Notes: generated from the letters alone by a model not told the origin. 63,760 nucleotides of DNA, filler included, from Stramenopiles sp. TOSAG23-6 (GCA_900128565.1; 9 parts of 9 records of this genome joined end to end with filler, not necessarily neighbours in it), one strand, 5' to 3'. Shown: positions 11,101 through 48,207, counted from the whole stretch's first letter. Translations and numbers: made by a program.

Positions 11101-11584
11101 GAAAATAATACTAGTATATACTAAAGAAAACACAACGAATTGAATATATTGTTGTACAAAACATTGTACATAGAGATATAAAAGGTTCAAATTGTTTAGT
11201 ATCGCGAAATGGCACAATAAAATTAGCTGATTTTGGTTGTTCTCGAGTTTTACATTCAAATAACCAATCTAAAGATGCAAGTCAATCTTTTGATTTGACG
11301 GCTGTTGGAACACCACAATATATGTACGTTTTCATTTCAATTTCGAATTGTTTTTTTTCGTACGAAATTTTGTACCTAAGATTTTTTTTTTTGAAATATT
11401 TTTTCATAATCCATGGCGCCAGAGGTGATGATGAAATCAGATAATTTACCTGAAAATAACCCAAATTTTTTTGTTATGAGTTTTGACGGAGAAGCAACAA
11501 TTGAAAAATTACGTAACAAATGTGAAACTATAAATACAAAAAATACAAAAAATACAAAAAATACAAAAAATACAAAAAATACAA
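8127..11584 (+). CDS. STE11/MEKK-like MAP3K with PB1-like segment; multi-exon, truncated by contig end
   Basis: [57 protein letters not shown] after splicing; YEDRVGDWI resembles PB1. Linkage to the 8127..9557 ORF is uncertain. Confidence 0.8.
10575..10678 (+). other. Family intron with probable GT-TG ends (104 nt)
   Basis: t|GTACAT...CACAATATTG|ta gives [15 protein letters not shown]; no AG or AT acceptor gives this frame nearby. Confidence 0.6.
11010..11164 (+). other. GT-AT intron (155 nt)
   Basis: at|GTATGT...ACAAAACAT|t restores [14 protein letters not shown]. Confidence 0.85.
11324..11414 (+). other. GT-AT family intron (91 nt)
   Basis: at|GTACGT...CATAATCCAT|g restores kinase GTPQY-M-APEV. 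Confidence 0.9.
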
Positions 11585-11628
11585 NNNNNNNNNNNNNNNN
11601 NNNNNNNNNNNNNNNNNNNNNNNNNNNN

Positions 11629-11640
11629 TTAATTAATTAA
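11629..11640. other. Artificial contig spacer; also at 23276, 34797, 46312, 57827, 59323, 60818, 62312
   Basis: Identical TTAATTAATTAA (stops in all frames) flanked by N runs. Confidence 0.95.
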
Positions 11641-11744
11641 NNNNNNNNNNNNNNNNNNNNNNNNNNNNNNNNNNNNNNNNNNNNTTTTCGTACGAAATTT
11701 TGTACCTAATAACAAAAATCTTGTACTATTTTTTCACAATACAT

Positions 11745-12188
11745 GCTTTCTCCACTAAAGTTTTGGAGCTAAATTCTGCTGGAAAAGTTGTTGTGCGTGA
11801 TAAATTCGCTGTGACATACTGTAACGACTTAGATACCTTTCATAATGATCTTCGTCAGGAATCTGGTGATCCTGAGTTAGAAGATTGTGTCAAGATTAGA
11901 ACTGTGCCAGAACGATTTATTTTTACAGTAGAAGTAACAGGTGCTTTGACACCATCTGAAGTGGTTCTCTCTGCGCTAAAAATTATTGAAAAGAAAATTG
12001 AGATAGTTGAAACGCAACTCAAACATGAAATTGAGAATGAGGGACAAAATACAGATATAAATGGTGTTGTAATGGATAAAAGAGGTGACATACAAAATTT
12101 ACCTCGGACGTTGCCAGGTCGTTTTGAGTCTGCTGATACTGCAGCTCGGCCACTTCTCCCAGGTGAGTTGTATAGTGTTGGTCGCTAA
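11745..12188 (+). CDS. RPB3: RNA polymerase II subunit RPB3-like, last exon (5' part off contig)
   Basis: RFIFTVEVTGALTPSEVVLSALKII; preceded by the family acceptor CACAATACAT ending at 11744. Confidence 0.75.
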   Translation, partial: AFSTKVLELNSAGKVVVRDKFAVTYCNDLDTFHNDLRQESGDPELEDCVKIRTVPERFIFTVEVTGALTPSEVVLSALKIIEKKIEIVETQLKHEIENEGQNTDINGVVMDKRGDIQNLPRTLPGRFESADTAARPLLPGELYSVGR

Positions 12189-12397
12189 GATTACTTTTAG
12201 GAGTGTGCAGTGGAGATATATACAGATTTTGCAACACTTTGATACAATTGAATGATAAATTTATGACAAAATTTTGTACTTTATGTATGTTATCGAAATA
12301 TTATTACTAGCTGTAGTACGAAAAAAATGTATCCAATACTCTGAATCAAGGACTTTATTTTTTTTTGTACCAAAATGTAATACCCAACAAAAAAACA

Positions 12398-13820
12398 TTA
12401 CTCATTATTCGCCTTTGAAGTCCATGCAACAAGCCACTTTAAATTAGTAAGTAAATATTTTAACGCAAAAGTCCATTTTTGCCAGTCACCTAATTGAATT
12501 GAGTAGCCTCCTATTTTATAATCCTTAATTTGATACGGCATATGAATGGTACGATCAACACGTGCCGCATATCGACCAAGTTCATCAAGACAGGCAAGAA
12601 AAGCAACCATGTATGGTGAAAAAAAACTTTAAAAAAAAAATTGTTAGATACAAAATTTTCTTAGTACACTCAAATGAAGTACACAATTAATTAGGGTTAG
12701 GGTTAATGAAAACAAACATTCCTCGATTATATGCACTTTTACCACGCCAACCACCATCCCAATATAGAGGATTGTAGTTACGCTCATCACCAATACGACT
12801 CACTCTAGAATACGATCCTTTTGGTATAATTCTAAATTTGCTAAATTTAAAATTCAAATGACTTTTAGCAATAGTTGTCATTAGTACAGCTGCCTGACCC
12901 CAAGCCGCATTAATTTCAGCAAAATCCACAAGTTGTGTCGGAAGCCTACCTAATCTGAATGTGTTAATTGTACCAAATGGACCCGAATGCCATATATAAA
13001 AAGCATCATTATTTACATTCGTTCTTTTAAGTTGTAATAATTTTTCATCCAGGCGTTGCTCCTGAAGTACCAGTGACCTCAACTCTTGGGTATCACAATC
13101 CAATTGAAGTTCCCAGTTGCCTGTTTTTTCCCAATATTTTCTGGATGATATTTTTAGTTTTTTTGTCTTTAATTTTTCTATTCTTAATTCATTTTCAGTT
13201 TTCTCTACTTGTAGCGTTACTTGTGACACTTCTTTTTTCATTCGTTCCAATTCGAGTCGAAGTTCCGCCAGAGAGAAAGAAGAAAATTCCCGAGACTTTG
13301 TTTTTGTTTTTTCGTTCGATGCCTTTGCTATATTACATATAGTTGAACTGTTATCACTGATATCTACTTTCTCCAAAGATTTCATAAAGTTTAGATATAA
13401 ATCACGCTCAGCAAGAACTTCTTCCAACTCTTTTTTTACTCTTTCTTCTGAATTCATACTGCAGCGAGCACACAAAGGTTGACATTCCACGGGATCACTT
13501 GCTAATGGAGAACAAAACCTTGCCAGGCTACACAGAGCACTCAAGGAACTCTTGCTATCATAAGTCAAAGAATGTATCATATCATCAGAATCACTCCGTG
13601 TTGCGTTATGCTCTACAGTCCCATTATTCCCACTCGTTGAATCTTTCAAAGAGCCAGCCTGGACAAACTTCCGAAGAGCGCGGAATCGATCATTAAATGA
13701 TTCTTCAGGTGGTAATAGAACTAATGGGTAGCCGCAACATTGACAGGCAGGGTCCCAAGAGGATTTATCCCAAGCCACTTCAAAATCTACCGGTGGAACT
13801 ACTTTTTTTGAGTCAACCAT
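12398..13820 (-). CDS. ATG6: Beclin-1/Atg6; 2 exons
   Basis: QPLCARC, LKRTNVNNDAFYIWHSGPFGTINTFRLGRLP, EINAAWGQ, AFLACL, WTFALKYLLTNLKW. Confidence 0.95.
12609..12717 (-). other. GT-AT family intron (109 nt) containing a telomeric dimer
   Basis: at|GTTTGT...CACCATACAT|g restores YNRG-M-VAFLACL. Confidence 0.85.
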
Positions 13821-14276
13821 CTATATTACGTGGAATATTTCCTTCCTATAACTATAATACTCTCAGTTCTCAATATATTTCGAAGCAATACTTTTTGCTT
13901 TTTTTTGTCTAGATGAAGCAAAATGAGATATGGTCAATTGGGTTATTGAATTGAATCTAATCTCTAGACCAAATAATCATCTATAAAATATGCATAAAAT
14001 ATTTTCTGGTGATTCATGACCCGTGGAAGACTGGAAGAAGAATCATCTATAGGAATCGAATATGGCGGCGATGGCGCCACAACAACGCGATGATGACACG
14101 TCATCATCTGACTCGGTTTTCCGTTTTTTGTTTGAAAAGAACCGTGTCGTCCGTTGTCGATTTTTTGCTTGTGTTGTGTCTGTCTGTCAATAAAAAATAC
14201 TTGGAGGATACGTTTATTTCTATTGTATATTCATTGTAACATTTCCCTCTTTATTCTTTAATATAACTAATGTAAA

Positions 14277-15858
14277 ATGGCGTCCAAAGTTCTTGGAAAT
14301 AGTAGAGGTGTTGGTTCATTGTGGAATCCAAATTCGTACCACTGGGAAGAAACAAATCATACAAAGTTCTCTATACAACTTCTTGAACACCTTTTCAAGT
14401 CTATTTCAATTGACTGTGGCGACGCGACGTGTCACATAAAGGAGGTTAGATACGTACGCGGTGATTCAGCAGTCAACATTCGCCGAGGGAAAAAAATTGC
14501 AATATTTGAGTTTGAAGCCCAGTTGCGATGGGAAGGATACTCAAAGTTAACCAAGAAAAAAAGTAAAGGCACAGTTGATATACCTTCAATTGTCCCTGAA
14601 GATGTTGAAGATGACGAATTTGAAGTTCATATATCTGGTGACTCTGGACCAGCTGCTACACTCATGCGAGATAAAGGAAGACGTGCAATTTACGCGGCGG
14701 TCAGAAATTTTCTCAAACGTTTAATGAGTATTGGTAATGATCATGCTGCAATAATAGCAGACAAAAGTCGTCGCATTGAAGCAAAAAAAAAAACAGATGA
14801 AGCAATACAGTTAAAAGGTAAAGAAAAATTAGCAATTGAAGAAAAAATACGTCAACAGGAAGCAGAAATCCTTGGTGTGTCCTCAATGGAAACAGAACGA
14901 AAAGCCGCTCTCCTTCCTTTGAAAAAAACAGTGAAACAAAAAAGTAATCCTAATCCGACTACCATTAAACAAAAGAAAACCCTAACCCTATTACCACCAA
15001 CTCCACCTGAAAATTCTCAAGACATTGGTGATAAAATCTCTACAATTTCGATAGAAAATAAAGCTTTTGTAGCTGCTCATTCGGCTGAATCCGCTGCAAG
15101 TAAATTAATAAATCCATCTCCACTTTTTGCAACCAAAATATCTCAAATTTCCCCAACAGAAAAAACAGAAAAAACAGAAAAATCATTTCAGCTTGTACAT
15201 TTTCAAAATTAAATTTCAAATTATTTTTTTTTCATAGTAAATTTTGTACCTAACAAAATATTTTACAAAACAAAAAAACAAATATTTTTTTCCAATACAT
15301 GGAAGTCAGTGGAATGAAAGAAGTTTTCATTGGGAAAATGCCGATATCACAAAATGGGCTATTCAGACATTAAGAAAAAAAATTTGTAATATATCAAGCC
15401 CTAACCCTAGTCAAATATCAGTCACAAAAATTGAGAAATTGGAAGGTACAGCAGAATTTGCCTCAAGAAAAGGAAAACAAATAGTTTTATTTGAGTTTAT
15501 TATAGAAGCCAGTTGGAACGGGAAATTATGTGATGGTAGTGGAAATATACTCGTTTCTACAAATGGAACACTTACCTGGAGAGAGTGTGCCCCAGACAAT
15601 TTAGATCCAGACGATATCCATATAAAATTTTGCAGTGAAAATTCTTCAAATGCTATAAAACGGCTAGAAAATATCGCTTCTGTAAAATTACGCGCTAGTT
15701 TGTTACGTTGTGTTTGTGAATTAGAAAAAGATATGTATTTTGAATTTTTTTTTCAATTTCGAATTTATTTTTCGTACGAAAATTCGTACCTAACGATTTT
15801 TTTTTGAAATATTTTTCCAAAATACATACGTAATGGGAAATTTAGGATCTCTGAGTAA
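14277..15858 (+). CDS. Protein with two Aha1 N-terminal (Hsp90 activator) domains; 3 exons
   Basis: WNPNSYHWEE...RRGKKIAIFEF and WNERSFHWE...RKGKQIVLFEF; introns 15195-15300 and 15735-15827. Confidence 0.8.
15195..15300 (+). other. GT-AT family intron (106 nt)
   Basis: ctt|GTACAT...TCCAATACAT|gga gives FQL-GSQWNERSFHWE. Confidence 0.85.
15735..15827 (+). other. GT-AT family intron (93 nt)
   Basis: Full consensus; splicing gives LEKD-I-RNGKFRISE*. Confidence 0.7.
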
Positions 15859-15959
15859 ATTTCCTAAAAAGATCAGATCGCGCTCGCTCCTGTAAAAATG
15901 GAGCGATATAAACCGGTAATTTCGAAATTTCTATTCAAATTCTTTAGGCGCCATTTGTA

Positions 15960-16845: not shown

Positions 16846-16937
16846 GTATGTTTTATATGAATTTTTTTTTCAATTTTTTTTCATACGAAATTTCGTACCT
16901 AACGAATTTTTTTTTGAAATATTTTTTCACAATCCAT

Positions 16938-17108
16938 CAACCGTCTAAGAGAGCATTACAATATTTAGCAAGAAAAAAAAAACAACAAAAAAAAAGGAAA
17001 GAACTACAAGATACTGTATTTTTTCATCATTCATTTTAATTTAAATTTAAATTTACATTTAAAAAAATTAAATTTTTTTTTTTTTTATTTTATAAAAAAT
17101 TTTTACCT

Positions 17109-17139
<31 letters not shown>

Positions 17140-20100
17140 CAATATTGTCCAAAATATATATGTACCAAAATGTTATATTTAATGCAAATCTTGAAAATTC
17201 TCAATTATGCCATCAAAATTTTAATTCATTTACCGACGGTAGTTTTGTAGCAAATAAGCATAGGCTGGACACACTAAATGATCAACGCGTACGTCATTAT
17301 ATTTATTTTTTTTAAGTACGATATTTTGTACCTAATTTTTAAATTTTATTTACATTTTTTTACATTTTTATACGAAATTTTTTTAAATTTTTTTAAAATT
17401 TTTTAAAATTATTATATTTTAAATATCAATCGAAAATTTTTTTAAAATTTTTATATATTTTGTATATTTCTTTACAGAATATATTTTATCAGATAAAGAT
17501 ATGATTGAAATACAACAATTAAAAGCAGAAGAACGAGAACGAGAAAAAATTTGTAGGTTTAAAAAAAAAAAATCGTACGAAATTTTGTACCTAATGATTT
17601 TTTTTTAAAACCCTAACCCTAACCTAACCTAATACATAAATGAACAATACAGTAGCTCAAGCGTTAAAAGATGCTCATAATAAGCATATTTGTCGTATAC
17701 GTGCTCAGCGAATTCGAGGTAAAACTTCTGGTGAACGAAATTGTTTTTTAGGTATTTTAATTTTTTTCATACGAAATTTTGTACCTAACATTTTTTTTTC
17801 AAATTTTCAATTTTAAAATGATTCTAGAAAATGTTTTTTTATTTCTACAATAATAATTTTTTATTTTTGTACAAATTTAAATGTAAATTTAAATTTAAAA
17901 TTCATTTAAAAAAAAAATTGAAATATGTCAAACCATTGCAGGTATATCAAAAGATGGTTCTGGACAAACCTGGCAGAGTCTTTCTGAAACACGAAATCAA
18001 CAAAAACGAAATCAACGAAAGTATAGGTACAATCATAATAATAACACACCTAAATTTTTTAGACAAACGAAATCTTCATTATTAAGACAAAAACGATACC
18101 AAAATGACCAAAATAACAAAGAAATGACGTCACTGTTGATGTCTCACAGCAGGTCTGTCAAAAAAAATCCAAACTCATCACGAAATACTAAAAAAACTCC
18201 AAAAACGTTACGTAAAAAATTACGTAGAAAGAAAAATGAAGAAGAAACAAATACAACAAATACAACAAATACAACAAATACATCGTTTTGGTATAAGCAG
18301 CGAAACACAAAAATAAGTGAAAGTGAAAAATCTGTAAATTTTAGAAAAAAATATGAAACTTTTTTGAATTCTGAAAAAAATTTTGAAAAAAATTTTGATA
18401 ATAATTTTGATAATAATATTGAGGAAAGACCTCAATGGTCTCTTAGTAAAAATAATATGAAAAAAGTATCCTATAGTAGACCTCATATGGCTCCTGAGCG
18501 TGACACAAATGAAATTTTGGGTATACAACAAAATGATTCCAATTATTCTGGAGATGTGCGTTAAAAAAAAAAAAAAAAAAAAAATTTCATACGAAAATTT
18601 TGTACCTAACCAATTTTTTTATTATTCAAAAAAAAAATATTTTTCACTCTATACAATGTAAATATTACAGAACGTCATAATAGCGACATCAAAGTATTTA
18701 CTGCTCCAATGGGTGATTCTACAACTGGTACAACAAATTCATATAAAAATATAAAAAAGTCAAAAAATAATAATTTTGGACAAAATGATAATTCAACAAT
18801 TTTGTATGAAAATTTTGTACCTAAGGAAAGTTTTCCCGATAAACACGAATTCTTGAATGGTTTAGAAGAGTCTCTTGAATCTATTGATCATGATGTAAAC
18901 CCTAACCCTAATGAAAGTTGGGTCTTTCATTCAGATGTACTAGATGGATTACACGAAATATCAAAAGAAGAAGAATTTGTAGAAAACCCTAACCCTAACA
19001 AAAATATTCAGACTACAAATGACTCATTACACGAAATATCAAAACAAGAAGAATTTGTAGAAAACCCTAACCCTAACAAAAATAATCTGACTACAAATGA
19101 CTCATTACACGAAATATCAAAACAAGAAGAAATCGTTGAACATTTGAGTGAGTTTTTTTTCAAAATATTTTTGAAAAACCTTGAAAAAAAAAATTCGTAC
19201 ATAATTTTGTACCTAACGATTTTTTTTTTCAAAAATATTTTTTCACAATGAATTCTCGAAATCATCAAAAATTGATATGAATATGAAAATATGGCAAAAA
19301 GTGATTGATACTGCAAAGAACAATACTAGTGGTAGACCGGGTAACGTATTCTTAGAAGACATCTCCAAAGAAAATATTGATTTTACAATGATTACAGAAT
19401 TATTACAATTACAAAACAATTTTCATACAAAAAAATATACACCTACCCGTACGTTGTTTATATACAAAATTTTGTAAAGAAAAAAAAAAAAATCTAAAAT
19501 TTTTTTTCATACAAATTTTCATACCTAACATTTAAAAAAAAAAATCTAAAAAAAATCTAAAAAAAAATTTTTNATACAATATTTCATACCTAACATTAAA
19601 AAAAAATTGTATATATATTATATACTCTTTAGGTATTTTACGCATCAATCATCCATACGAGCAAAATATCATTGGATCTTCAGAATCGACTTCAATTATT
19701 GAGTTACAAAACAAAACAAATCATAATGATATTCAAATGTTATTTTATGGTGGAGATAGTGAGGAGTTGACATCTATTGCGAGATTTGGTTTTTCATCAT
19801 TACACGAAAAACACGAAATGTCTACTAACCCTAACCCTAGTCACCCACAAAATGGTGATGCTTCTATAATTATCTGTTCTGATGATATCAATATTGCTGA
19901 TCAATTTCATAAATCATTACCAGAGACTCATTCTGTTGCATTACCTGGCCATTGGAAAGGTATAAAATTAACTGCCACGTGGCGAACACTATTAGTCGCT
20001 GTTGCGCCTGGTGAAATTGTAGACACAAACCCTAACCCTAGCTATACAAAAGGTTTAAAAGGTGTAAAAAAATGTATAGAAAAAAATGACTTGACGAATG

Positions 20101-21748: not shown

Positions 21749-23150
21749 ATGTATATAATGTTAAATATACAACTTCTGCTTGGTGTATTCCTCGTATTAA
21801 ACATCACTACAATAAAAACAATAGTAGATGCGACGTGTAGTGATTGTTCTTGTTACCCATACTGTATGCCGTGGGAGGAATCACGGCCATATTATAATCG
21901 AAACCCACAAACAATTAACAAATATATGGGTACGTTTACTAATTATGGTTCAAATCTCACCGAAATAGTGAAACAAGTCCTCATTCTTCCTTATATTGTA
22001 CCAATAGAACCTGTGTCATCAATGACTGAAGACGATTGGCTAACTCATTATTTATCACTCCAAGGCATAGATATCTCATTACGACTTGGTGAGCTTAGCA
22101 ATGATGATATCACAGCACGAACAGAATTGCGTAATAAATACATTACAATGTATTCAAATGATACCAAAATGAAGTCTGGATTTTTAGATAAAAATGATGC
22201 CGGTGCAGATTGGAACGTTTCTCCTATTTTACCCAATCTTTTGTATAATTCTACTTTTGTATACGGAATGGCTAATTTTAAAGCAGGGCAATGTGTGCAA
22301 AATCAAAATTGTGGTGAAATAACAGATAGAAAATCAGATAATGATTTTATTGATGGTTACATTGTTGATAGTATGTTTTTATTATATATTTTTTTTATTT
22401 TTTTTTTTTTTTTTACAAATGTAAAACTAACATTTTTTTTTTTTGTATGATATTTTTTTACATTTCATGTGATATAACTGTAGCTAAAATAGATTCAAAT
22501 ACGGGAGACATTATTAATATATGGCAGTATGGTTCACCACAGAATGATATAGCAGTAGCTATTCTTGCAGATTCAGGGGTATCAAATCGAACAAAAAATA
22601 ACTCTGACAAAAATGATATAAAAAATATGTATGTTTTATTTTTTTTTTTTTTTACCGAAAAAAAAAAATCAATTTTTTTTTTCATACGAAATTTTGTACC
22701 TAACAAATTTTTTTTTTATAGAAAAATTTTGAAATATTTTTCCAAAATACATAGATAACGAAAATACAAATAGACCTCTACGTTCATGGGATTTTGATTG
22801 GCAAAATAATTTAGTATGGATTTTTGGTACAACAGAATCTCCACGTATGTATGTTTTAATTTTTTTTTTACTATGATTTTTTTTTTTATAAAAATTTTGT
22901 ACCTAACGAATTTTTTTTTCAAATATTTTTCCAAAAGTCAATTGCACCAACTTTTTTTGAAAAGGGTCAAAAACCTACGAAAATTGAACGGAGTAAAGGG
23001 CGTCCAAAAGGGAATAATAATCACAATGGATGTAATATTCCTTTTGATCCAAATCCTCTTGTTACTCATGATGATTTATTATATAAAGTTAAAAATGGGG
23101 AAAATCCAGGAACAATGGTTGATATTGAAACAGACATGGGAAATGTCTAT
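21749..23150 (+). CDS. Secreted SBBP-like beta-propeller protein; multi-exon, truncated by contig end
   Basis: Signal peptide; DITVAKIDSNTG...WQYGSPQNDIAVAI and VWIFGTT after introns 22371-22468, 22629-22752 and ~22845-22941. Confidence 0.65.
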
Positions 23151-23176: not shown

Positions 23177-23231
<55 letters not shown>

Positions 23232-23331
23232 NNNNNNNNNNNNNNNNNNNNNNNNNNNNNNNNNNNNNNNNNNNNTTAATTAATTAANNNNNNNNNNNNN
23301 NNNNNNNNNNNNNNNNNNNNNNNNNNNNNNN

Positions 23332-24559: not shown

Positions 24560-24999
24560 TGCAATATACTCACCTTAACATTTAAAAGATGGATATCAAA
24601 ATTCAAGAACAAGCAAAAACGATATACGTCTGATGGTGATCCCTGTTGTTTCTCCCTATCACTCTCTCTACCGGTCACTCATGTGAAGCCACACTGAATC
24701 TACTGTTTTTGTACCAAATTTTGTACCAAAATTTAATCTAGAATTTTTTGCAAGCATCATCATCTGATGGCTGGGTTCTGGGTACCACATATTTTCAATA
24801 CCAGGTAGACCTCTCACTTACCACACAAACATTCCTCCTACGTTGACTAAAAGTTCATATGAAAAAGGACCTCGCGCGGATTAACTCTGTATTATTCAAT
24901 AGACTATATTTTTCCAGTATCTGTAGACACTACTACACAACAGGCTGAAAATTTCAGATTGCATCATTATTCGGTTTAATATCGTGTGTTGTTTGAGTA

Positions 25000-34752: not shown

Positions 34753-34852
34753 NNNNNNNNNNNNNNNNNNNNNNNNNNNNNNNNNNNNNNNNNNNNTTAA
34801 TTAATTAANNNNNNNNNNNNNNNNNNNNNNNNNNNNNNNNNNNNNNNNNNNN

Positions 34853-37800
34853 GGAAGATAATAGGAAATTCTTCCCAGGAAAGGTGAAGTCTATGAATGG
34901 AGATGGAACATTCAATATTGTATTTGATGATGGCGATGAAACTAACAAATTAGAACGAAAGTTTATAAAGATTTTAGATGAGGATTTACCATCCCCTTCT
35001 CCGGCGCCGGACAATAGTATTGCAGATACAAGTGGTGCATTATTCTCAACTGACCCTAAAGTTGCTGTCAATGACACAAAAGCGGATGCTATTTTCACTG
35101 CTGGAGATCTAGATGGCGATGAAATCTGGAATCTCGAAGAAGCTAATAGGGTTAATCAAATACTTGGTGAGGACCCAATGAATGCAGACGATTTCAAAGA
35201 ACTTTGTCTCGTTGTTGGTTGTCATGATACTGGTGGTATAACAAAAGATGGCGTGAGAAAAATGTTTTCGATGCAAGAAGGTACTTCAGAACTTGATAAT
35301 GCATACAAATTATTGGTATTGTCGTCTTCTAAAGCTGGTCAATATATCGAAGGGGCAAAAGTTGAAGCCCAGTTTGGTAGTGAAACTGGTGAATGGTTTA
35401 AGGGTAAAATTGATCGTGTAAACAATGATGGTACATTCGATATTTTATATGATGATGGTGATCGTGAAAGAGTTGTCCAAAAACATCGAATTCGTTTGAA
35501 AGAGACAGCAAATACCGATATATCTTCAAAAGATATAGAGGATGATATAAATAGTGATGGAGTGTTCAAAGAGGGTGATGCAGTAGAAGCGATGTATGGT
35601 GACGGTGAAATTTGGTACCCTGCAACTATTACGAAAGTAAAACACGCGTCACAAGAAGACATTACTTATGATTTACTTTACAATGATAAGGATACTGAGA
35701 TAGGAGTCATACCCTCAAAGATCAGAGCGACTGAAAAATTATCTTTGCAAGCTGAGGACAAATTAATTGAGGAGCTCTTCACCGCAGGAGATCGTGATGG
35801 CGATAAAATTTGGAATCTTGAAGAAGCTAATCGAGTTAATGAAATCCTAGGNGANGCACCGATGAGTGAAAAAGATTTCGAAGAGCTTTGTGTATCGCTT
35901 GGTGATACCAGTGAGAAAGGAATGACAATCAATGGTGTGACTGAAATGTTTACCTCACAGCAAGACACTCAATCAGAACTTACTAGGGCTCGAAAACTTG
36001 TCATTGAAGCAATGAACGCAGCTGCTTTAGCCAAAGATCGAGGATATACTCTGGGTGATCGCATTGAAGCAAGGTTTGGCGGAGATGATACATATTACCC
36101 AGGAATTGTACAAGGTATAAATGATGACGGCACATTCGAGATTTTATATGATGATGGGGACAGTGAACCTACAGTTAAACATTTTTTATGAGACATCAAA
36201 GTGTGGTTGAGGATACTGGTGAGGATACAACGAATGGAAATTTGGGTACAGCAAACACAAACAAAAATGAGAAGGCCAGTAATTCATTGAATGAAAAGAA
36301 CTTCGTCGTTGGTACAGTCATTGAGGGTAATTATAATAGTGAAGGCAAATGGTTTAAAGGTAAAGTGGTCAATGTAAATGAAATTGACGGATCATTAAGG
36401 TACGACATTACATATGATGATGGTGATATTGAATCTGATGTTTCTAGCGAGAATATCCGATATCCTAAATTGGGTGGAGGTTTATTTACTGCATCACAAA
36501 AAGTTGAATGCAAGTATCAAGGAAGTGAAGAGTGGTATTCAGCATCAGTACTCTTGGCTAATACTGATGGCACTTATAATATTGCTTTCGATGATGGAGA
36601 TAGAGAAGATAATGTTCCATCTGAATTAATCCGTGCTCTTGATGATACACCCGAGGATAACGATTCGAATCTGACAAAGGATAATGAAAAGAAAGACCAG
36701 AAACAAGTTGACAAAACCAAAGAACCACAAGAGTTAGATGCAACTCCAGTGGAAGAAAACAAAGAACCACAAGAGTTAGATGCAACTCCAGTGGACGAAA
36801 ACAAAGAACCAGAAGATGCAGAGGAAACTCCAATGGACGAAAACAAAGAACCAGAAGATGCAGAGGAAGCTCCAATGGACGAAAACAAAGAAGCAGAAGA
36901 TGCAGAGGAAACTCTCATGGAAGAAAAAAAAGAAGCAGAAGATGCAGAGGAAACTTCAATTCAAGAAAGCAACCAGGAGGTAATTTCAGCCGATGAAGAC
37001 AAAAATTTAGAAGGTATGGAAACAGNGAAAGGAAATGAATTAGAATTTTCAGTTGGAGATTTAATAGAAGGTCAATATGATAAAGGCCCGGAGTGGTTTC
37101 CTGGTTCCATATCAGCAGTCAATAATGATGGTACGTATAATATAAAATATAGTGACGGTGATTCAGAAATGAATGTTCTAAAAGAGTACATTAGAGTACC
37201 ATTGGTAGGTGGTGGTTCATTTTCTGAAGGTGATCCTATAGAAGCATTATTCAGAGGAGAATCTGAGTGGTTTCCCGGAATGATATCTAAAGTGCATGAC
37301 AATAATACGTATGATATTATGTATTATGATGGCGATATAGAAGAACAAGTGGCTTCAACTCTAATTAGAATGTCGGATAATAATGCTGCTAAAGCAGCAC
37401 AGACTGCCGTTGCTAATTCCCCGAAAGCTAGTCAAGTACCTCCAGATGCAGATGAAGAATCCGAGGATGATGGTCCTCTTCTAGAAGGCTCCGCAGTGGA
37501 GGCATTATCCGGAGGCAATTGGGTTTCTGGTCAAATTAAAAATGTTCGCGAAAAGAAAGTAGAAGGAAAGGATGAAACTACAATTTCCACTTTTACATAT
37601 GACATTTTATTTGACGATGGAGAGCGTGAATCTAAGATGGATGCCAGCGATATCCGTGTTCTTTCAGCAGAGGATGCAGTTGCAGCTGCAGCTAACCTTG
37701 AAGGAAACAAAAAATACTTAGAAAATGGGATGTCAGTTGATGCTTTATATAACAAAGGAAATCGTTGGTTTGCTGGAAACGTAGGGAAGAAGAATGTACA

Positions 37801-38007
37801 TTTTCATCATTAATTTCAAATTTATTTTGTTCGTACGAAAATTTGTACCTAACAATTCTTTTTACTAAAAAAATATTTTTCACAATACATGAAAATGGTA
37901 CATATGAGATTGTGTATCATGATGGGGATATCGAAGAAGAAGTTCCACGAAATTTTATTAGATTATCATTAGGATCTAGACTGAAAATGATGTCCCAGGG
38001 TAAATGA
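34853..38007 (+). CDS. Large multi-Tudor/Agenet-like repeat protein with EF-hand-like inserts; 5' end off contig
   Basis: Many 'GxxVEAxY..WFxGxIxxVNxDGTYxIxYDDGDxE' repeats; probable 1-nt indel at ~36185; intron 37796-37890. Confidence 0.8.
36715..36960 (+). repeat. 39-bp coding minisatellite (KEPEDAEETPMDEN-like units)
   Basis: ~6 degenerate tandem units. Confidence 0.8.
37796..37890 (+). other. GT-AT family intron (95 nt)
   Basis: aat|GTACAT...CACAATACAT|gaa restores KKN-ENGTYEIVYHDGD. Confidence 0.88.
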
Positions 38008-39516: not shown

Positions 39517-40497
39517 TCAACTATGCACAATTATAGGTTGCCCAAGTCCCCCTCTTTGTTTTGAACTTTCGACATCTATTTCGAATATAAAATCTTTCCA
39601 GTCTTCGTCAAGTATAGCGTTGCGCTTAACGTACTCTTCTTCGTGGTCTGCTTCACCAGTAATATGTTTTCCAGTTTCTGAGGTCTCATCAAATACCAAA
39701 TGAACTTTATTTCCTGTCTGATTCCATTTGCCACTCATAATCAGTGAAGTTGTCTTCATTCCATCATATTCGAGAAATTCTCTCGTGTATATTTTTTTTC
39801 CAATCCATCTAGCAATACCCGATTGCATCAAGGTTAAAACACCTTCCCTGTAATCCAACATTTCCTTTGTATCATGAATGTTTAAAAAATATTTCAAAAA
39901 AAAAATTGTTAGGTACAAAATTTGGTACGAAATATTTTTTAAAAATTCATGATGAAAACGTACACGTATAGGGTTCCATAAATATGTTCCTGCCGCTACT
40001 TCATGAAAAGAGTTACGTTTTAGACCTGANATTGGACTTGAGATGTTTTCACTTGACATACTCTCACTTCGTTTTCGCCGTTCATTCATTCTTTTTCGTC
40101 GCCTGCCGCTCATTCTACGACGTTTCCTGGGGCTCTTTTTTTTTGTTTCTTTTGTTTCTTTTGTTTCTTGTTGTTTTTCTTGACCATCTGCAGAAGAGGT
40201 TTGTGATTTGTTCTCTGGAGGTATTGAAGACAATGTCTGAGGATCAAATGCATTATTCCAATCTATAATATCTTGGCTACTACTTTCTGATATTGTAGAT
40301 TGATTTTCGCCCCAATCTACAGTTTGTTCAGGACAAGCTATAGATAATGCACGACTTTCTTCTTTTTCTTTTTTAGATCTCCGACAACAAGCACAAAATT
40401 TAATTTCACTGCTTACTCTTTCATCTCTTGCTTCTTCTTCTTCTCTTTCATCCCTTCCTTCTTCTTCGTCTAAACGTTCAGATGAAACATTACCCAT
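39517..40497 (-). CDS. Hypothetical protein (MGNVSS start, possibly myristoylated) with an in-frame 90-nt GT-AT intron at 39874-39963
   Basis: Family consensus embedded in the ORF: cgt|GTACGT...AAACATTCAT|gat. Confidence 0.6.
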   Translation of the reverse strand: MGNVSSERLDEEEGRDEREEEEARDERVSSEIKFCACCRRSKKEKEESRALSIACPEQTVDWGENQSTISESSSQDIIDWNNAFDPQTLSSIPPENKSQTSSADGQEKQQETKETKETKKKSPRKRRRMSGRRRKRMNERRKRSESMSSENISSPXSGLKRNSFHEVAAGTYLWNPIRVRFHHEFLKNISYQILYLTIFFLKYFLNIHDTKEMLDYREGVLTLMQSGIARWIGKKIYTREFLEYDGMKTTSLIMSGKWNQTGNKVHLVFDETSETGKHITGEADHEEEYVKRNAILDEDWKDFIFEIDVESSKQRGGLGQPIIVHS

Positions 40498-40763: not shown

Positions 40764-43645
40764 ATGGCAACATCAACTNTTTCATCAACCGATCCTGCAA
40801 TCGCTAATAAGTTTGTAGAATCATACGAAGGAAGCAGATCTGGGGATGGAAGCATGCATGGCGATGCTACTCAATGCATATTTTTAGGAGAGCAATCTCA
40901 ATATAAAGGTCAATTTCATGCAAACCTTATGCANGGCTTGGGTTCTTATACATGGAAAGATGGAACAACTTTCGAAGGCGATTTTAAGTATAATCAAATT
41001 GATGGTAATGGCTCATANATATGGGCTGATAAAAGTTCATATACAGGTGGTGTATCTAAAGGGAAACGACATGGTTCCGGTGTATTTAAATATTCCCCAG
41101 AGCTTGGTGCAATTTATAAAGGTACATATAGAGAGGGTTTGCGTGAAGGGTATGGCGAGCTTTGGTATAATGCCGAAAAGAGTTCATTCTATAAAGGAAA
41201 CTGGCTTGGTGGTGAGCGTCATGGTTCGGGGTTTATGATCTACCCTAGTGGGAGTAGATATGATGGAGGTTGGTTGAATGGGAAGAAACATGGACATGGA
41301 GAATTCTTTTGGTCGAAGCAGAATGAAAAATATGTAGGGGATTGGAAAGAGGGTAAGCAACACGGTTTNGGTGTTCATACATGGCTACAAGAAAGTGATA
41401 GTGGGAAATATTCACCNGTGCATCTACGACAGATGTGTAATCGCTATGAAGGCAATTGGAAAAATGGTCTTCGTGATGGTTTTGGGATATTTCACTACGC
41501 CAATGGTGCAAAATATGAAGGTGATTGGAAGAATAATTTAAAACATGGTCGAGGTATTTTTACATTTGATGATGGCAATATTTTTGAAGGTGAATTTTTT
41601 CATGATCGAATGCTAACAGGTCCAGATAGAGCTGGCGCAGGTTCCAATTCNCCTCGTGCTCGAAATGACAACAGTTCAATAAAGGAAGTAACTATAAGTA
41701 AAGATTCCGCCACTTCTAATAAAAAGAGCAAAATTCGAAAAAGTCCTCTAAAAGGTAGTCACAAAAAGGAGGATATCAAATCTAAAAATAAAAAAAATAA
41801 TAAAAATAATAAAAATAATAAAAACAAGAAAGTGGGTAAAAGACCAAAGAAAAAACTAATCGCAACAGTGAAACAGACTCAATTGCATATTAGTGATGTA
41901 TTGGAAGGCAGAAATATTTCACAGGCTGAGCAAGATGACCAAATTCGAAGTATCCGAAATGCACTATTACGCACAAGTTCAAAACTACAGAATATTTACA
42001 AGTTTTATTCTGAAAAATGTTCATCCAATGAAGGGAATATGTTTACAATGCCTATGGAGGAATTCTGGGTCTTTGCACATGCATGCAAATTACCTAGACC
42101 ATCATTCCCATTGGCAAGAATTAACCGAGTGTTTCTCGAAATGCGATTGCATCATTTTAAGTCGATACGTAGTGGAAGAGCTCAAATAGTTGCATCGGGG
42201 GTTACATCGACATCAGAGTCTTTAATGGAGGCAGTAGTACCTCCTGAGAAATCATCAATTGGTGTACATTCGGGAAAAAGATCTCTCTTGTATCGTGATT
42301 TTATTGAAGGACTTGTTCGTATTTCACAAGCTCTTTATGATGCTGATCATGACGGCAGTGCAGTTAAACATGGGTGTACTATAAACCCAAAAAGAAGTAA
42401 GAAATATCCAACAACGTTGTCAGATAAATTTTGCTGGATGCTTTCTGATTTTATTACAGAGCCACCAAGTAATACAGAAACATTATCTGAATTCGAGAAA
42501 CTATTACAACATCCGGATATTCAAGGACTAATACTTAAATGGAAAGAAAATATACATANATTATTTTGCACATCCTCGAAACAGAAATGTTGTTTTTTAC
42601 CTGCTGCAAAAGACGAAACAATGAGTTGTGGGGAATGGGTGAATATGTTACGAAAAAATGGTCTTGTAAAGGATGGCACTGATGCGGATGCCATTACTGT
42701 GTCTACTGAAGCGGAAGATAATGCTAGTGCTAACAGTGTTAGTAGTGATTCCAAGTCAGATAGTTCTAGTGGTAATAGTCATTCAGATAGTAATAGTCAT
42801 TCAGATAGCAGTAGTCATAGTATAGTACAAGAAATACAAAAATGGCAAAAATCAGTTACTACAGACAAAGCTATTCAATTATTTATGTCTACAAACTTTC
42901 AAAGAAATATAAATGATTCTGAGATAAATGTACCAAATGTTGGAGAAAGTGTAGCATCAGAATGTTCTCTGCTTCATATTGAAATGATAGAATGGGAATT
43001 TATTCGGTTGTTATGCCGCTTTGTCTTCGAGACTCATTCCGATATTTTTCGTACAGCTAATCGTTTAGAAAAAGAAGAAAAGGAAGCNATAGAAGCTTCT
43101 GTTGCTGCTGCCATTGCGAGGAGAGAGGCAGCAGAAGCAGCTAGAGGTGCATCNCCGAGATCATGTACGTTGTCAAAATTGTTTTTTTTGCACCAAATTT
43201 TGTACCAAATTTTGCACCTAACAAAACAATAGATTGTACAATATCTTTTCACATTGCATCATTCTCACGTTCTTCGTCTAGGTATTCCACGAGACCTTCA
43301 TCAAGAACGTCGCCAAGGTCATCACCAAGAAACGCCTCAAGGCCTTCTTCGAGGTCTTCACCAAGAAACAGTTCGCGGCCATCTTCGCGGTCGTCAATAA
43401 GATCATCATCAAGGTCAACAACGGGTAAAAAGTCTATGTCATCATCACCTTTAATTACAAAAAAGAAGATGTCTTCGCTAGTTGAAGATCGGCCACTGAG
43501 TGGCTTGCATATTCCAACAGAGCTTCAAATGGACCCAGCAGAGCAACGTCGTGAAAGACGGAAAACAATGACAGAGAACTATTTNATGCAATTATCTGGA
43601 CTTTTCGAATTACTGTTTGTTATGGAGACAAATTCTATACAATAA
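40764..43645 (+). CDS. MORN-repeat protein, RSPH10B-like (radial spoke); GT-AT intron 43165-43259
   Basis: ~10 YxGxWxxGxxHGxG repeats then LQNIYKFYS; splicing joins the two ORFs in frame. Confidence 0.75.
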
Positions 43646-43981
43646 AAACAATCGATAAAGATTTATTTTGTTTTTAAAATGAACTTCAGTGTACGGTTGC
43701 GTTAAAAATTCCATGTTGTCCGCTACCGTATAGNTTAATGTATATTTTGCTATATATAAGATAGTCCCTTTTCGATTTGATCAATCTCAAATGCGCGCAA
43801 TTGCGAATAAGTTCAAACTTCAAACGACTTCAAACATCAAAAGCTGATGTCAACATTCAGTCAAGTTCACCCAATTACCCAAGAAGAACCTTCAGATTTG
43901 TTTGAATTCTTAAAATATAGAAATCCCTGATGAATTTAACTTCATTTTAACATCCATTTCAAAAGTCCAAAAGCCTCGAAA

Positions 43982-46212
43982 ATGGAAGTTCAAGTCCATC
44001 CAGAACCACCACTTGAAAATGATAGCAACTTGAACTCGTCATTACCAAGTCTTCCCTTCTACCCCCCTCGCCGTGACCTGCTCATTGGTTTTTTTTGTTC
44101 TTTTCTTTATCTAACCGTGCTCCTAAGCCTCGAAATGGGTTGTAACGCAGATGGGGGAGAAATGAGTTGTAAAATTCCACTTCGTGTCTCACCCGACCAG
44201 GTCCTCTTTTCAAGTGGCAAGGCACAAGACAAAGCACATGAGGCTCTGAGCACGAAAACAAAAATTAAAACTGCAGAGCCATGATCCTATAGTGGTAAGG
44301 TTGGAATTAAAATACAGATGTGGAATATCGATTTTTCGAGCTTTACATGGCAGATTCATGACAATAAAAAAGAGTTTAGTCGTGTGTTTTCAGCCCCAAC
44401 GTTGCCCTACCGAACTCGATGCGACAGCCATAGTTGCAGAAGAGCGAGTGATGGAGCATTAGTGGGTGTAGATGGGGTTTTCCCAAAGGCAGTCACATTC
44501 AATGCTGAAGCTGCTTTAATACAGAGTCAGAACTCTATCAGCGACGGATGGAAGATTCTGGATGAAAATTCCGAAGATTTTTTTGAAATGGAAAACGAAG
44601 TGAAACTATGGGAGGAAAATGAGGAAGCTCTGTATGTTTTATTTTTCTTCCATTTCGATTTTTTTTTCGTACGAAATTCCGTACCTAACAAATTGTACAA
44701 AAAAAATATTTTTACACAAACATGGAGTCTGAACTTTCGAATGAGTCTACAGAACGCGATTGTTTCAGTTCAGATATGATGGTGTTTTCAACACTTCAAC
44801 AAAGTCCTGTACCATGCAACATCGGCTTCGGATATGTAGAACCGAAGGAAATGAAAATATTTCCGACTACAATTACACGAAAAGAGTGCGAAGGAACAGA
44901 TGAACCACGTATGTTTTAGTTTTTTTCAAATTCGATTTTTTTTTCGTACGAAATTTTGTACCTAACGATTTTTTTTAAATATTTTTCCAAAATACATGCG
45001 CAACTTTCACTACAGATCCAAATGAACAACATGGGACTAGCTGCAAATGTTCATATGACCCAATAGCCGTAAGCAATGGTTCAACCGACTACAATATGTG
45101 GTGTACACCACTAGCAGCTCTCTCTGAACGAGGGAAACCAGTGCAGGATTTTTTTTTCACACCTGAAGGTTTTAAATATGGGGCAGCAAATAAGTATTGG
45201 ACAGATGAAGATCAAATTGCATATGAAAAAGATTATGAACTTTATGAAAAAAAGTTACAAGCAGAGGCAAAACAGAAATGTGGTACAATGTGTGATGACG
45301 AAGGAACATGTGCTGCAAGTCAATGTCAATGGGATTATGATCTGCTCGGTGGCATATCAATGGATCCTTTATTTGAGTATTGTGAACGCTCAGCTCCGTA
45401 TCATTTTATAGGGCAAAAAGCCAATGCAATTAGCAATCACTGGTTTGGTTTCTTTGCAGTTTGGACGGTTTGTTTTGGCATGAGTGATTTGTTGAGAAAG
45501 TCGAATCAATTAGAGATCAAAATCATTTGCGCTTGTTCAGCTGGTTTGGTGGTTGTGTTTATTCTCTGTCTAATTATTTTTGGCGACAAAGGTTTTGGTG
45601 GAGCCGTTCACATCTCCCTCTTTGGGACACAAATAATTGGAGTTTTACTTAACGCTGTTGGGGCAGCGGTAGGATATGGAACGAATAGAGATCCTAATAT
45701 TATTACAAAAACATATAAAAAAGGCGAAATAATTTCTTCTTCTGAGATGGTTACATTGAACAGTACTAATGCACCTGCTGAGGAAGAGCAGCAAAAAACA
45801 GTGATAATTGATACTGAAGAAAAGAATGTTGCAGCAACACGAGTCGCACTTGTAGCGAATATAATAGATATAGAGGCAGGTGATGTTGTCAAAAGTGATG
45901 TGTTGTATTTGTCAAATCATCTTCGTGACTGTCCGTTCCTAACACTGCAGTTTGGACTTGCTCTATTTATGACAGACTCGAGCAGTTTTTTATTTCATGC
46001 TTCGTTGACACAGTTAGGTCAGCGTTTAGATGTATTGGCTGTCTACTGTGTCGTTCTCACACCATTTGCATATAGTCTCCTTTCATTAATGAATGTACCA
46101 CCCCCTACTGTCACTAGTAGGAACCAGCCCAAACTTGTTCGTTTCCTTCGTTGTCTTACTATATTGATGCCATTGACTCTTGCATTTGTATTTGCATCTG
46201 CAGGAAACAAAG
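43982..46212 (+). CDS. Multi-TM protein with CREST/ceramidase-like motif; GT-AT introns 44632-44723 and 44909-44997; truncated
   Basis: YCE...QKANAISN, SSFLFHAS..QRLDV; both splices join ORFs in frame; in-frame TGA at 44282 unexplained. Confidence 0.65.
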
Positions 46213-46426
46213 GTATGTTTTATTTTTTTTTCAATTTCGAATTTATTTTTCGTACGAAATTTTGTACNNNNNNNNNNNNNNNNNNNNNNNNNNNNNNNNN
46301 NNNNNNNNNNNTTAATTAATTAANNNNNNNNNNNNNNNNNNNNNNNNNNNNNNNNNNNNNNNNNNNNCGTTAGGTACGAAATTTCGTATGAAAAAAAATT
46401 AAATTAGAAATTCATATGAAACGTAC

Positions 46427-48207
46427 ATCATTTACAGATGTTTTAATTCCCTGTAGCTGTGGTGCCCTATATCGAATTTCTCCCGTAAGACTATGCTTGT
46501 AATAATAAAATCCAGTATACGGCGAATATAATTTTTCCCATATGGAAAGCAAAAGATTCCGCATGTATTTTAGAANAATATTTCAAAAAAATCATTAGGT
46601 ACAAATTTCCGTACGAAAAAAAAATCGAATTTGAAAAAAAATAAAACATACATATTACGTCGAACAAGTTTTCTTCTATACATTCCTTGTAGTTTAGAAA
46701 TGGAAACAAACTCTCGCTCTTCTTCTGTCATATCTTCCCATTTAGGTTTTGTTACTTTACTTTCATTCATCTCATTTTCACCCTTTTCGTTTTCATCATT
46801 TTCATTTTCATCATTTTCACTATCTTCATCTATTATAGGTTTACCCAGATAATTGTAACGAATACCATCATATCCACCCACAGGTGCGTAAATTGTAACA
46901 TCATTACCAAAGTCATCATATTCATTTTCTTCGTTCAGAGCGAGTTTAGAAAATCGCTTTTCAATTTTTTCTAACTCAATTGAACGTAGACGTTTTTCAT
47001 TGTTGTGTACTACTTCGTCCTTTAATAACTTCGGTTTATCCCATTGTGCTTCACCAGTTTCATGATTTTGGTAATAATATGCTTGGTGCCATTCGTCCCA
47101 TTCCTTGGAAAATATTTTATTTAGCATTGCTTTGAACATCTTTCTTCCTCTTCTAGCTCTATACAATGTTTGGATTCTAGATGCAGCAGCATCAATTCCA
47201 GGTGTACCTAATAACTCTTCTAACTTTGCAGCAGCTGCTCTAGCTTCTTCCAGTTGTCTACGTCTTGAGGATTCTTCTCGACGACGCTTTCTTTTCTGCT
47301 GTCTTTCCCATTTTTTATTTTGCATTGTAGTAAATGAATCGATTCTACCCATTCGCGCTTCTCGTTCTGCATGCGAAAACTCAAAATGATACATAGCATC
47401 TGATGCGCACTGTTGTGTGATTATATTCGATGACATTGCCGCATATGCGGCTCTTGCAGCACGCATTGCAGCCTCCGCCTTTTGCTTTGCAACTTTTTTT
47501 TTACGGAATTCTGCAAGTCGTTCTTTCCTTGCCGCTTTTGCTCTCTTCTTTGCCTCTAATTGTTCTGGCGTGATTACATTTTTTTCTTTGTTTAATTTTC
47601 TTATAGATCTTCGATCTTGTTCTAAGCGTAACCTTTGTTTCTTCTTTACCTGGAACTTTTGGTATTCGATAATAGACACTGTGCCACTTTTATCCTCGTC
47701 AAAGCGTGCAAAGTCTTTAGCCGTACCAAGACCAGCTTTTATAAACTCGTCTTTATCTAGTTCACCACTACCATCATGATCAATCGCATTAAATTTATCT
47801 TTATAGCCTGCATTGTGCTTTTTCAAGTGTTTTTCTAGACGAGCCTGCATTTCAATACGTTTCTTTCGTGTACTCTCTAATTTCTCCTCTGCCTCTTTGA
47901 GTGTCTCATCGACAGATTTACCAGCGTCTGTTCCAGCTTGAATTTTTAAAGTGGTCATTTCGATATATTCACGAAGGTCTATAGTACCACTTCCGTCAAC
48001 ATCAGCAGCATCAAAGTCTTCGCTTGTGCCTAATCCTGCGGCCAAAAATTCGTCCTTTTCAATTCCACCACTGCTATCTTTATCAAATTCAGCAAAGTTG
48101 TTGGTTTCTTTATTTCGACGCTGTCGTTCAGCTTTTATCTTTGATTTGCGAAGCTTAGTCTTTTTATGACGGGCCATTGCAGCGACTTCTTCTTGTGTCA
48201 GCTCCAT
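46427..48207 (-). CDS. EF-hand, IQ and WW-like domain protein; GT-AT intron 46563-46651; truncated
   Basis: DKDSSGGIEKDEF-type loops; IQTLYRARRGR; YYYQNHETGEAQWDKP; spliced second unit WEKLYSPYTGFYYYKHSLTGE. Confidence 0.8.

Follow-up and report, generated by a model that had tools for sequence, protein, structure and literature searches.

The stretch of DNA analysed here (the window: 63,760 bases, 34% G+C) carries a family of short, AT-rich introns that, as far as the sequence tells, appear to be cut at GT...AT borders. It is probable, in our judgement, that these are real introns of a MAST-3-like stramenopile, forming an introner-like family with non-canonical GT-AT splicing. Introners are known, as are the non-canonical intron sets of Amoebophrya, Fritillaria and euglenids, and the combination in the window is different from these: it would bring together, in MAST-3, a 5' site of classical form, a single prevailing 3' dinucleotide that is non-canonical, and one family of sequences. 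An initial annotation of the window had recognized the repeated sequence and missed the GT...AT borders, the main oddity of these introns.

Copies of one element in unrelated genes

Four introns that the initial annotation had singled out as alignable are copies of one element, with pairwise identities of 68-92%, and the boundaries given for them were exact (11324-11414, 15735-15827 and 44909-44997 on the + strand, 46563-46651 on the - strand). The last two of these lie in unrelated genes and are 92% identical over their full length. A family profile built from 25 copies and searched with nhmmer finds 46 matches in the window at a cut-off of E<0.01 (31 on the + strand, 15 on the - strand), together 3334 bases or 5.3% of the non-N bases; a 19-nucleotide (nt) core, allowing up to four mismatches, occurs 52 times. 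Most counts given below refer to a curated set of 30 introns that are complete at both ends; their lengths run from 89 to 197 nt (median 101.5), their G+C content is 17.5%, and 26 of them are overlapped by a family match. Copies sit in genes for a kinase, Beclin, Aha1, SNF2, Tudor, MORN, EF-hand, protease and fumarase proteins. The introns were said to occur in all three phases and within conserved motifs, and so they do: phases 0, 1 and 2 hold 7, 11 and 12 of the 30, and interrupted motifs include GTPQYM|APEV and YLHNCN|IVHRD in the kinase and two in SNF2, one of them GPH|LVVVP.

The family consensus reads GTA[CT]GTTTTCAT .. AATTTC(G)AATTT .. T-run .. TTTC[GA]TACGAAATTTTGTACCTAAC[GA]A .. T-run .. 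GAAATATTTTTTCA[CA]AATACAT. Copies can be aligned through the spacers as well (AATTTCGAATTT and a CGTACG palindrome), and the core carries a 12-nt palindrome, TTTCGTACGAAA, with three GTAC sites. Similarity ends at the borders: no consensus is seen in the exons from -8 to -3 or from +2 to +8. A scan that combined a 3' position weight matrix (PWM) with reading frames gave 42 matches, against 4 in a reversed-sequence control. Eight more copies, beyond the curated set, are cut by or abut contig ends; 8 of the 16 contig ends fall inside or at copies where 5.3% would be expected (p 6e-7), which points to a high-copy repeat, since assemblies break in this way at long near-identical repeats.

Several copies carry part of the element in tandem, with two core boxes or with the 5' 30 nt present twice: 6500-6664 (-), 9723-9900 (+), 19449-19632 (+) and 60876-61025 (+). 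Solitary near-palindromic pieces of the core (GGTACGAAAATTCGTACC-like) stand outside introns at 2385-2410 and 24713-24735. There is possibly an AG-ended minority, in which 19449-19632 seems to end TTTAG and 762 to about 940 (-) CAG.

Placement of the intron borders

AT closes 28 of the 30 introns, AG and TG one each. Excision at GT...AT leaves at least 25 open codons on both sides of the junction in all introns except 15735-15827 (29/30); copies 16846-16937, which does not pass this frame test, and 22849-22942, whose border is ambiguous, are not among the 30. In the first set of introns to be assembled (n = 27), frames are open in 24 at shift 0 and in just 4-9 when the 3' end is moved by one or two bases either way. 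Seven junctions are exact to the residue: four in the SNF2 gene, one in Beclin, one in the kinase (11010-11164) and one in fumarase (61633-61736). The SNF2 junctions neither lack nor add residues relative to three homologs, and the Beclin junction NRGM|VAFL matches P0127 and P0128. Micro-repeats allow a border to slide over the range [-4,0] at 26399 and [0,+4] at 26611; because these ranges overlap only at zero, a single rule for all introns requires shift 0.

Canonical AG ends were tried in the set of 27. The first downstream AG gives an open frame in 11, near the one third expected by chance, and the last internal AG is usable in 5; in SNF2 intron 1, as read from the alignment, the next downstream AG would remove the GLGKT motif. 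A wider scan for xCAG, xTAG and xAAG does not discriminate, since any in-frame end past the real intron passes it, and a map of low-G+C islands is likewise uninformative. Because excision restores both the frame and colinearity with homologs, we read the borders as GT...AT and not GT...AG.

A relative offers a view of the same junction. The Beclin coding sequence (CDS) of GSMAST32 in EukProt (P0126), which from its name should belong to a MAST-3 assembly (Nanomonadea, stramenopile), has six extra residues, IFFSPY, exactly at the position of intron 12609-12717, and FFSPYM is the translation of the last 18 bases of the Beclin intron. Apparently the GSMAST32 model forced an AG acceptor inside the intron. 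A search with Aha1 exons for transcript-derived proteins crossing a junction returned no match at E<=1e-20.

The copies and introns of the window are listed here by position and strand; paired numbers are open codons on the two sides of the junction.

149-345, -: intron with no family profile match, GTACGT...ACAT, from the 3'-PWM plus frame scan, 58/48
501-622, -: family intron, GTATGT...ATACAT, 152/62, phase 2
1190-1282, -: family intron, GTTTGT...ATTTAT, 80/58
1472-1596, -: family intron, GTATGT...ATACAT, 156/81
5948-5998, +: partial copy reduced to the core (about 50 nt), with a 12-nt direct repeat, TATCGTGCCCAA, on either side (5937-6008)
6261-6366, -: family intron, GTACGT...ATACAT, 64/88
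6500-6664, -: family intron with tandemly duplicated core box, 370/63
10575-10678, +: family intron in the kinase gene, ending ATTG where others have ACAT; residue 2 of exon 2 is Pkinase position 23
11010-11164, +: kinase intron without the family core, GTATGT...AAACAT, at a Pkinase junction
11324-11414, +: family intron of the kinase gene, at GTPQYM|APEV, with exon 3 reaching as far as Pkinase position 163
11685-11744, +: family intron truncated by a contig start to its 3' part, ending CACAATACAT before an RNA_pol_L exon
12609-12717, -: Beclin family intron, GTTTGT...ATACAT, containing CCCTAACCCTA; gapless tblastn at NRGM|VAFL, colinear with Pfam APG6
15195-15300, +: family intron between two Aha1_N domains, 308/168
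15735-15827, +: family intron with 9 open codons after it, which would make a short last exon or 3' untranslated region
16846-16937, +: family copy whose GT...AT excision the frames do not support, 13/33 at shift 0 and better at -2
17016-17159, +: intron candidate with no family match, GTATTT...ATATAT
17752-17905, +: family intron candidate, GTATTT...ATTCAT
19148-19253, +: family intron, GTGAGT...ATGAAT, 179/73
22371-22468, +: intron candidate with no family match, GTATGT...TTTCAT
22629-22752, +: family intron, GTATGT...ATACAT, 85/40
22849-22942, +: family intron with ambiguous 3' border, a 38-codon open run at shifts -2, 0 and +1 alike
26197-26290, +: SNF2 family intron 1, GTACGT...ATATAT, residue-exact by tblastn with P0001, P0003 and P0004
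26399-26492, +: SNF2 family intron 2, residue-exact by homologs and the SNF2-rel_dom profile
26611-26709, +: SNF2 family intron 3, 52/658, placed by homologs
28634-28724, +: SNF2 family intron 4, ...KFQW|(Y)CPHHSC, with one residue between high-scoring segment pairs, as in the homologs
37796-37890, +: Tudor/Agenet family intron, 539/38
39874-39963, -: family intron, GTACGT...ATTCAT, 231/118
43165-43259, +: family intron in a MORN-repeat gene, GTACGT...TTGCAT, 812/127
44632-44723, +: family intron, 115/64
44909-44997, +: family intron, 73/423
46213-46267, +: family copy truncated by a contig end, 5' part only
46368-46426, -: family copy truncated by a contig start, 5' part only
46563-46651, -: family intron in an EF-hand gene, 523/49
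57690-57782, +: family intron of a papain-like protease gene, at a contig end
57883-57935, -: family copy at a contig start, 5' part only
60720-60773, +: family copy at a contig end, 5' part only
60876-61025, +: family intron at a contig start, 5' 30 nt tandemly repeated
61349-61453, +: fumarase family intron ending ATAG, with G in place of the T of other copies and a Fumerase_C gap
61633-61736, +: fumarase family intron, GTTTGT...ACTCAT, with exon 2 running to Fumerase_C position 141, the split codon at 142 and exon 3 beginning at 143
62368-62458, -: family copy cut by a contig start

At 11010-11164, residue 108/109 of exon 2 is Pkinase position 117 and exon 3 starts at position 120, so that positions 118-119 are filled by the last residue and the split codon. 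The motif at junction 11324-11414 is one we take to be the APE motif. Intron 10575-10678, for all its ATTG ending, appears to be cut at the same place as the other copies, a placement that depends in part on the presumed Pkinase profile consensus for the spacing of exon 1. The 5937-6008 copy, unlike the others, could represent a local duplication or an insertion with a long duplication.

Signals within the introns

At the 5' site, GT occupies +1 and +2 in all 30 introns, A is at +3 in 26, and T is at +6 in all 30; hexamers include GTATGT, GTACGT, GTACAT and GTTTGT, with consensus GTAYGT. A branch-like box, TACCTAAC, is present, its A lying a median of 36.5 nt from the intron end, and T runs lead to a usual 3' end of CA(C/A)AATACAT. 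Tails hold on average 6.2 AT dinucleotides, and in only 12 of 30 introns does the site used coincide with the first CAT past the branch-like box; because of this, bare AT cannot be the 3' signal, and the long conserved 3' block would have to carry the specificity. Introns of the U12 type have the 5' site RTATCCTT and a branch box, TCCTTAAC, 10-26 nt from the 3' end. U12-type (AT-AC) identity is rejected here: the 5' hexamers differ, the branch-like A lies too far from the end, and no more than 11 of the 30 introns can be reparsed as AT...AC.

The junctions had also been read as a short inverted repeat, ATGTA...TACAT, whose pairing might help to define the splice sites. A match of 5-6 nt does exist, but the ends ATGTAY/RTACAT are complementary in 79.8% of cells against 78.5% in a shuffle control, and among the 30 introns no base pair changes on both sides. 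RNAalifold returns no consensus pairs. In minimum-energy folds, at least 4 of the first 14 bases pair with the last 14 in 14 of 30 introns, against 4.2 from shuffles; these end-paired folds are mostly of the GTATGTTTT...AAAATACAT type, and the mean folding z is -1.2. With no consensus pairs and no covariation, nothing beyond the conserved sequence itself speaks for a role of end pairing in defining the splice sites; such pairing is possible and, as a mechanism, unsupported.

Signals in the flanking exons

The estimate that about half of the upstream exons end in AT proves accurate: 16 of 30 do, against 9.1% expected from 22605 coding positions (binomial p 9e-10). Relative to the coding background, T is enriched at exon position -1 (23/30, p 3e-8) and G at downstream position +1 (18/30, p 4e-6), and AT|G junctions number 8 of 30 against 2.6% expected. 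Flanking micro-repeats, too, are enriched as had been claimed, at a mean of 2.37 nt against 0.66 in 5000 simulations, with repeats of at least 3 nt at 13 junctions where 1.8 would be expected. As a check for target-site duplications (TSDs) the outcome is mixed, the repeats exceeding simulation while spanning 0-4 nt to either side. In ordinary eukaryotes the exon consensus AG|G mirrors the AG end and the G start of the intron; here the mirror is the same, with T replacing G at both -1 positions. In our view the exon signal is no proof of a TSD, both because the repeat keeps no fixed length or side and because the AG|G consensus mirrors intron ends in the same way. The AT|G bias reads equally well as a proto-splice-site consensus that mirrors the AT intron end, and the exon signal could have any of three sources: a TSD (AT or ATG), reverse splicing that prefers such sites for insertion, or exon contacts of the spliceosome.

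Mobility and origin

The label introner-like, as first applied to these introns, stands in so far as one repeated sequence extends to exact borders and not into the exons, in unrelated genes, in all phases, within conserved motifs and at very high density, and contigs break at it. The accompanying proposal of a DNA-transposon origin goes beyond the evidence, there being no fixed TSD, a terminal inverted repeat (TIR) of only 5-6 nt, no full-length antisense or clearly intergenic copy in the window, and no transposase in the 62 ORFs scanned. By a crude measure of orientation 38 of the 46 matches are sense, 4 'anti' and 4 ambiguous; none of the 'anti' matches is a full-length antisense copy, three being partial copies and one misjudged across a contig joint. 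Spread through RNA fits a sense-only, exact-border family lacking TIR and TSD at least as well as a DNA transposon does. Introns are crowded in places: 500 bp of the SNF2 gene hold three, a single kinase domain holds another three, and next to these are exons of 640-820 codons free of introns.

A search elsewhere with the core pattern found two metagenome contigs with one copy each. In one of them (L002), excision at ACAT|GTATG...ACAT|GG joins one open reading frame (ORF), and one of the two copies lies in a complete small gene. The core pattern has no matches in viral contigs; 17 viral contigs matched by a shorter pattern are attributed to chance, none of the 17 fitting the family profile.

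On the reading we prefer, most of the introns would be sense-oriented copies of one AT-rich element of about 90-105 nt, each bringing a full set of splicing signals: the 5' site GTAYGTTTT, the branch-site-like box AAATTTTGTACCTAAC, runs of T and, fixed at the 3' terminus, TTTTTTCA(C/A)AATACAT. Removal would fall to a U2-type spliceosome whose 3' recognition has shifted from YAG to YAU, where a G(+1)-U(-1) contact could replace G-G and the long conserved 3' block, not bare AT, would supply specificity. The family may have multiplied by copying itself into AT|G positions in the manner of introners, whether as a DNA element with a 2-3-nt duplication or by reverse splicing into sites that resemble ligated exons.

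Weighing the explanations

A number of observations weigh against this reading. Every junction is placed from frames and protein colinearity; copy 16846-16937 misfits GT...AT by frame and the border of 22849-22942 is ambiguous; the AG-ending fumarase intron 61349-61453 leaves a gap of about 4 positions in Fumerase_C; and 11 of 30 introns could be read as AT...AC just as well. The micro-repeats vary in length and position as described, the inverted repeat consists of ATGTAY/RTACAT only, with two of its 5-6 nt exonic and no long TIR, and no transposase domain occurs in the 62 ORFs scanned, all within the 64 kb window. To these may be added the points that favour a rival explanation, that of stereotyped introns without recent mobility, in which the spliceosome demands a 5' site, a 16-nt branch box and a 21-nt, AT-ended 3' block, introns of any age have converged on one sequence or retained it, and the apparent family is the mark of that constraint. 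Columns conserved at 80% or more are concentrated in three blocks that resemble splicing signals, mainly the 5' site, the AAATTTTGTACCTAAC box and the AAATATTTTTYCAMAATACAT block. Four curated introns with no family match share the same ends; three are not independent, because they were found with the family-derived PWM, and the fourth, 11010-11164, was located by the kinase profile alone. Variants of the 5' and 3' halves are not significantly linked (Mantel r 0.15, p 0.10; for the fourth 5' base and position -8 as subfamily markers, Fisher p 0.11), no fixed TSD, no full antisense copy and, in the ORFs scanned, no transposase is seen, and the Beclin intron, the sole one that can be compared, is also present in the GSMAST32 relative. 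Against constraint of this kind, the spacers are alignable as well, copies in unrelated genes reach 92% identity over the full length, and contig breaks at half of the 16 ends require long near-identical repeats. The crowding of introns in the SNF2 and kinase genes beside long intron-free exons resembles gain, and internal tandem duplications and partial copies occur. Constraint as the whole explanation strikes us as unlikely.

The family might instead be real and its removal non-spliceosomal, through pairing of the ends and micro-repeats, with cuts that vary between copies as has been proposed for Amoebophrya and euglenids, or through removal at the DNA level. The pairing potential of the ends and the end-paired folds described above are what such removal would use, variable direct repeats span the borders as they do in Amoebophrya (PMC7789003), and a bare AT cannot specify a site. 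A strict GTAYGT, a branch-like box, a T tract and sense-only copies are nonetheless hallmarks of the spliceosome; RNAalifold finds no structure, covariation is absent, pairing equals the shuffle control, the mean folding z is only -1.2, and one fixed border fits every junction checked by homology, all of which leaves this explanation quite improbable to our minds. Less credible by far is an artefact, in which the elements are never removed and either were inserted into dead genes or arose when a metagenome bin was misassembled. The window is indeed a chain of short contigs with many single N, and the junctions rest on sequence; yet long ORFs are restored in 29 of 30 cases, colinearity is exact at seven junctions in four genes, copies occur in two independent metagenome contigs, and the reversed control yields 4 matches to 42.

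Relation to known introners and non-canonical introns

Introner surveys report GY...AG borders, rare GC or GA 5' sites, and TSDs of 3-9 bp and/or TIRs where these could be ascertained (PMC9860276, PMC11282704). Like the introners of Micromonas pusilla and Aureococcus and the families of Gozashti et al. 2022, the copies here are short, AT-rich and found in unrelated genes, and their similarity ends at the borders (PMC9860276); also shared with the surveyed introners are splice signals carried by the element itself, short repeats across the borders, and an mRNA that excision leaves as it was. The differences lie in the AT 3' border, the micro-repeat of 0-4 nt without fixed register and the inverted repeat of 5-6 nt. 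The main texts of the two surveys, supplementary tables aside, contain no MAST or stramenopile terms (PMC9860276, PMC11282704).

The repeated elements of Amoebophrya A25 and A120 likewise belong to a marine protist, form repeated introns without GT-AG and encode no transposase (PMC7789003). Direct repeats of 3-5 nt lie over their borders and inverted repeats at their ends (PMC7789003). Amoebophrya has no clear dinucleotide signature, hairpin-forming inverted repeats of 8-20 nt and a U1 small nuclear RNA (snRNA) that went undetected (PMC7789003), whereas here GT...AT dominates (28/30), a classical GTAYGT forms the 5' site, and the introns have a branch-like box and no stable consensus hairpin. 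The hairpin-defined introns of euglenids and Amoebophrya are marked by stable end pairing, borders that vary and the lack of a U1-type 5' site; the introns of the window fall outside this class, with 0 consensus pairs, no covariation, and uniform GTAYGT and borders. Fritillaria borealis offers another parallel, most of its introns being non-GT/AG with a 3' end of A plus a base other than G (AG-AC, AG-AT) (PMC11282704, PMC13326754). For these an origin from miniature inverted-repeat transposable elements is suggested, and an adapted U2 spliceosome with divergent U2AF paralogs reads the odd 3' ends (PMC11282704, PMC13326754). In Fritillaria the 5' end is non-canonical too (AG) and the introns are diverse, while the window shows a canonical 5' end and one family.

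The fungal introner-like elements of van der Burgt et al. 2012 are reportedly short, sense-oriented intron copies that carry all splice signals. An Alternaria introner is given as an example in Fig. 2 of PMC9860276. The resemblance to fungal introner-like elements covers sense copies with splice signals, the lack of TSD and TIR, and the suggestion of 'direct insertion'; unlike the introns here, those elements are GT-AG introns.

In the full-text literature searched, exclusive of supplements, we found no report of GT-AT introns or introners in MAST-3. Supplements aside, the Incisomonas genome paper contains neither the word intron nor splic-, 'introns' has no occurrence in another MAST-3 genome paper (PMC8163842), and in Seeleuthner et al. 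2018 'intron' occurs twice, one instance being in the gene-prediction methods.

Contigs and host of the window

Five contigs of about 11.5 kb, then several of about 1.4 kb, make up the window, in which many single N occur. The contigs are joined by eight spacers of the form N44-TTAATTAATTAA-N44, presumably the usual six-frame-stop spacer for chaining contigs, at these positions:

11585-11684
23232-23331
34753-34852
46268-46367
57783-57882
59279-59378
60774-60873
62268-62367

Genes on either side of a spacer are unlinked, because the window joins separate contigs. A larger composite palindromic element, which facing halves of copies might suggest, is rejected, as contig spacers separate the halves.

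ORFs in the standard code encode ordinary eukaryotic domains, among them LRR, Beclin/APG6, Aha1_N, SNF2 with PHD, Sel1, Tudor/Agenet, MORN, EF-hand, PX, Na/Ca exchanger, papain-like protease, Arf, DIM1, Myb and class I fumarase. With the GSMAST32 CDS the large Beclin exon shares 90% identity; the SNF2 exon has no close relative, its top match (56%) being to a cluster that contains a Lotharella sequence. In the Aha1-like gene 14271-15732 (+) two Aha1_N domains stand in tandem on either side of intron 15195-15300. The long Tudor/Agenet ORFs at 34809-36191 and 36179-37813 overlap in different frames where a T6 run occurs; the junction reads ATGA (36170-36200), and the cause is probably an assembly frameshift within one gene. 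An Rfam scan of the window found no snRNA and no other family. Four metatranscriptome runs contain only 0.10-0.13 of the sampled words, a figure with no bearing on expression, junctions or habitat.

A telomere-like motif, CCCTAACCCTA, usually as AAA-CCCTAACCCTA-A/G, has 23 sites in the window and none in 100 shuffles. Examples on the + strand are at 8681, 9130, 9248, 9308, 14980, 15399, 18900, 18987, 19065, 19829, 20030 and 20237, and on the - strand at 6877, 6943, 12702 and 23507; an inverted pair occupies 56459-56483. Most sites appear to be on the sense strand within ORFs, where they would encode NPNP-like runs, and two are inside family introns. Similar motifs follow the gene on metagenome contig L002. 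The motif could represent either another small inserted element or a regulatory box.

Implications for splicing and intron gain

A broader proposal, advanced tentatively and short of calling it probable, is that in the MAST-3 lineage the 3' splice site has moved from AG to AU genome-wide, with GU...AU the rule, the exon consensus changing in step from AG|G to AU|G, and one self-copying family supplying nearly all introns. If this is true, U2AF35-like proteins, step-2 factors, and the U1 and U5 snRNAs should have co-evolved with the shift, which would also explain why gene models of relatives force AG inside introns and why few genes are predicted. Gene finders restricted to GT-AG will mis-model most multi-exon genes of these organisms, as the six intron-derived residues of the GSMAST32 Beclin illustrate. 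Single-cell MAST-3 assemblies are described as having only about 2,700-3,300 genes in 19-21 Mb (PMC5778133), and these introns may be the cause of so low a count.

Bursts of intron gain are at present best explained by introners, and Fritillaria, Amoebophrya and euglenids indicate that such bursts can accompany a loosened splice-site rule, of which the present case would be a cleaner example, in a group of abundant and almost unstudied ocean grazers. It would make testable how the second splicing step tolerates a last base other than G, and whether the 'proto-splice site' of the exon tracks the end of the intron.

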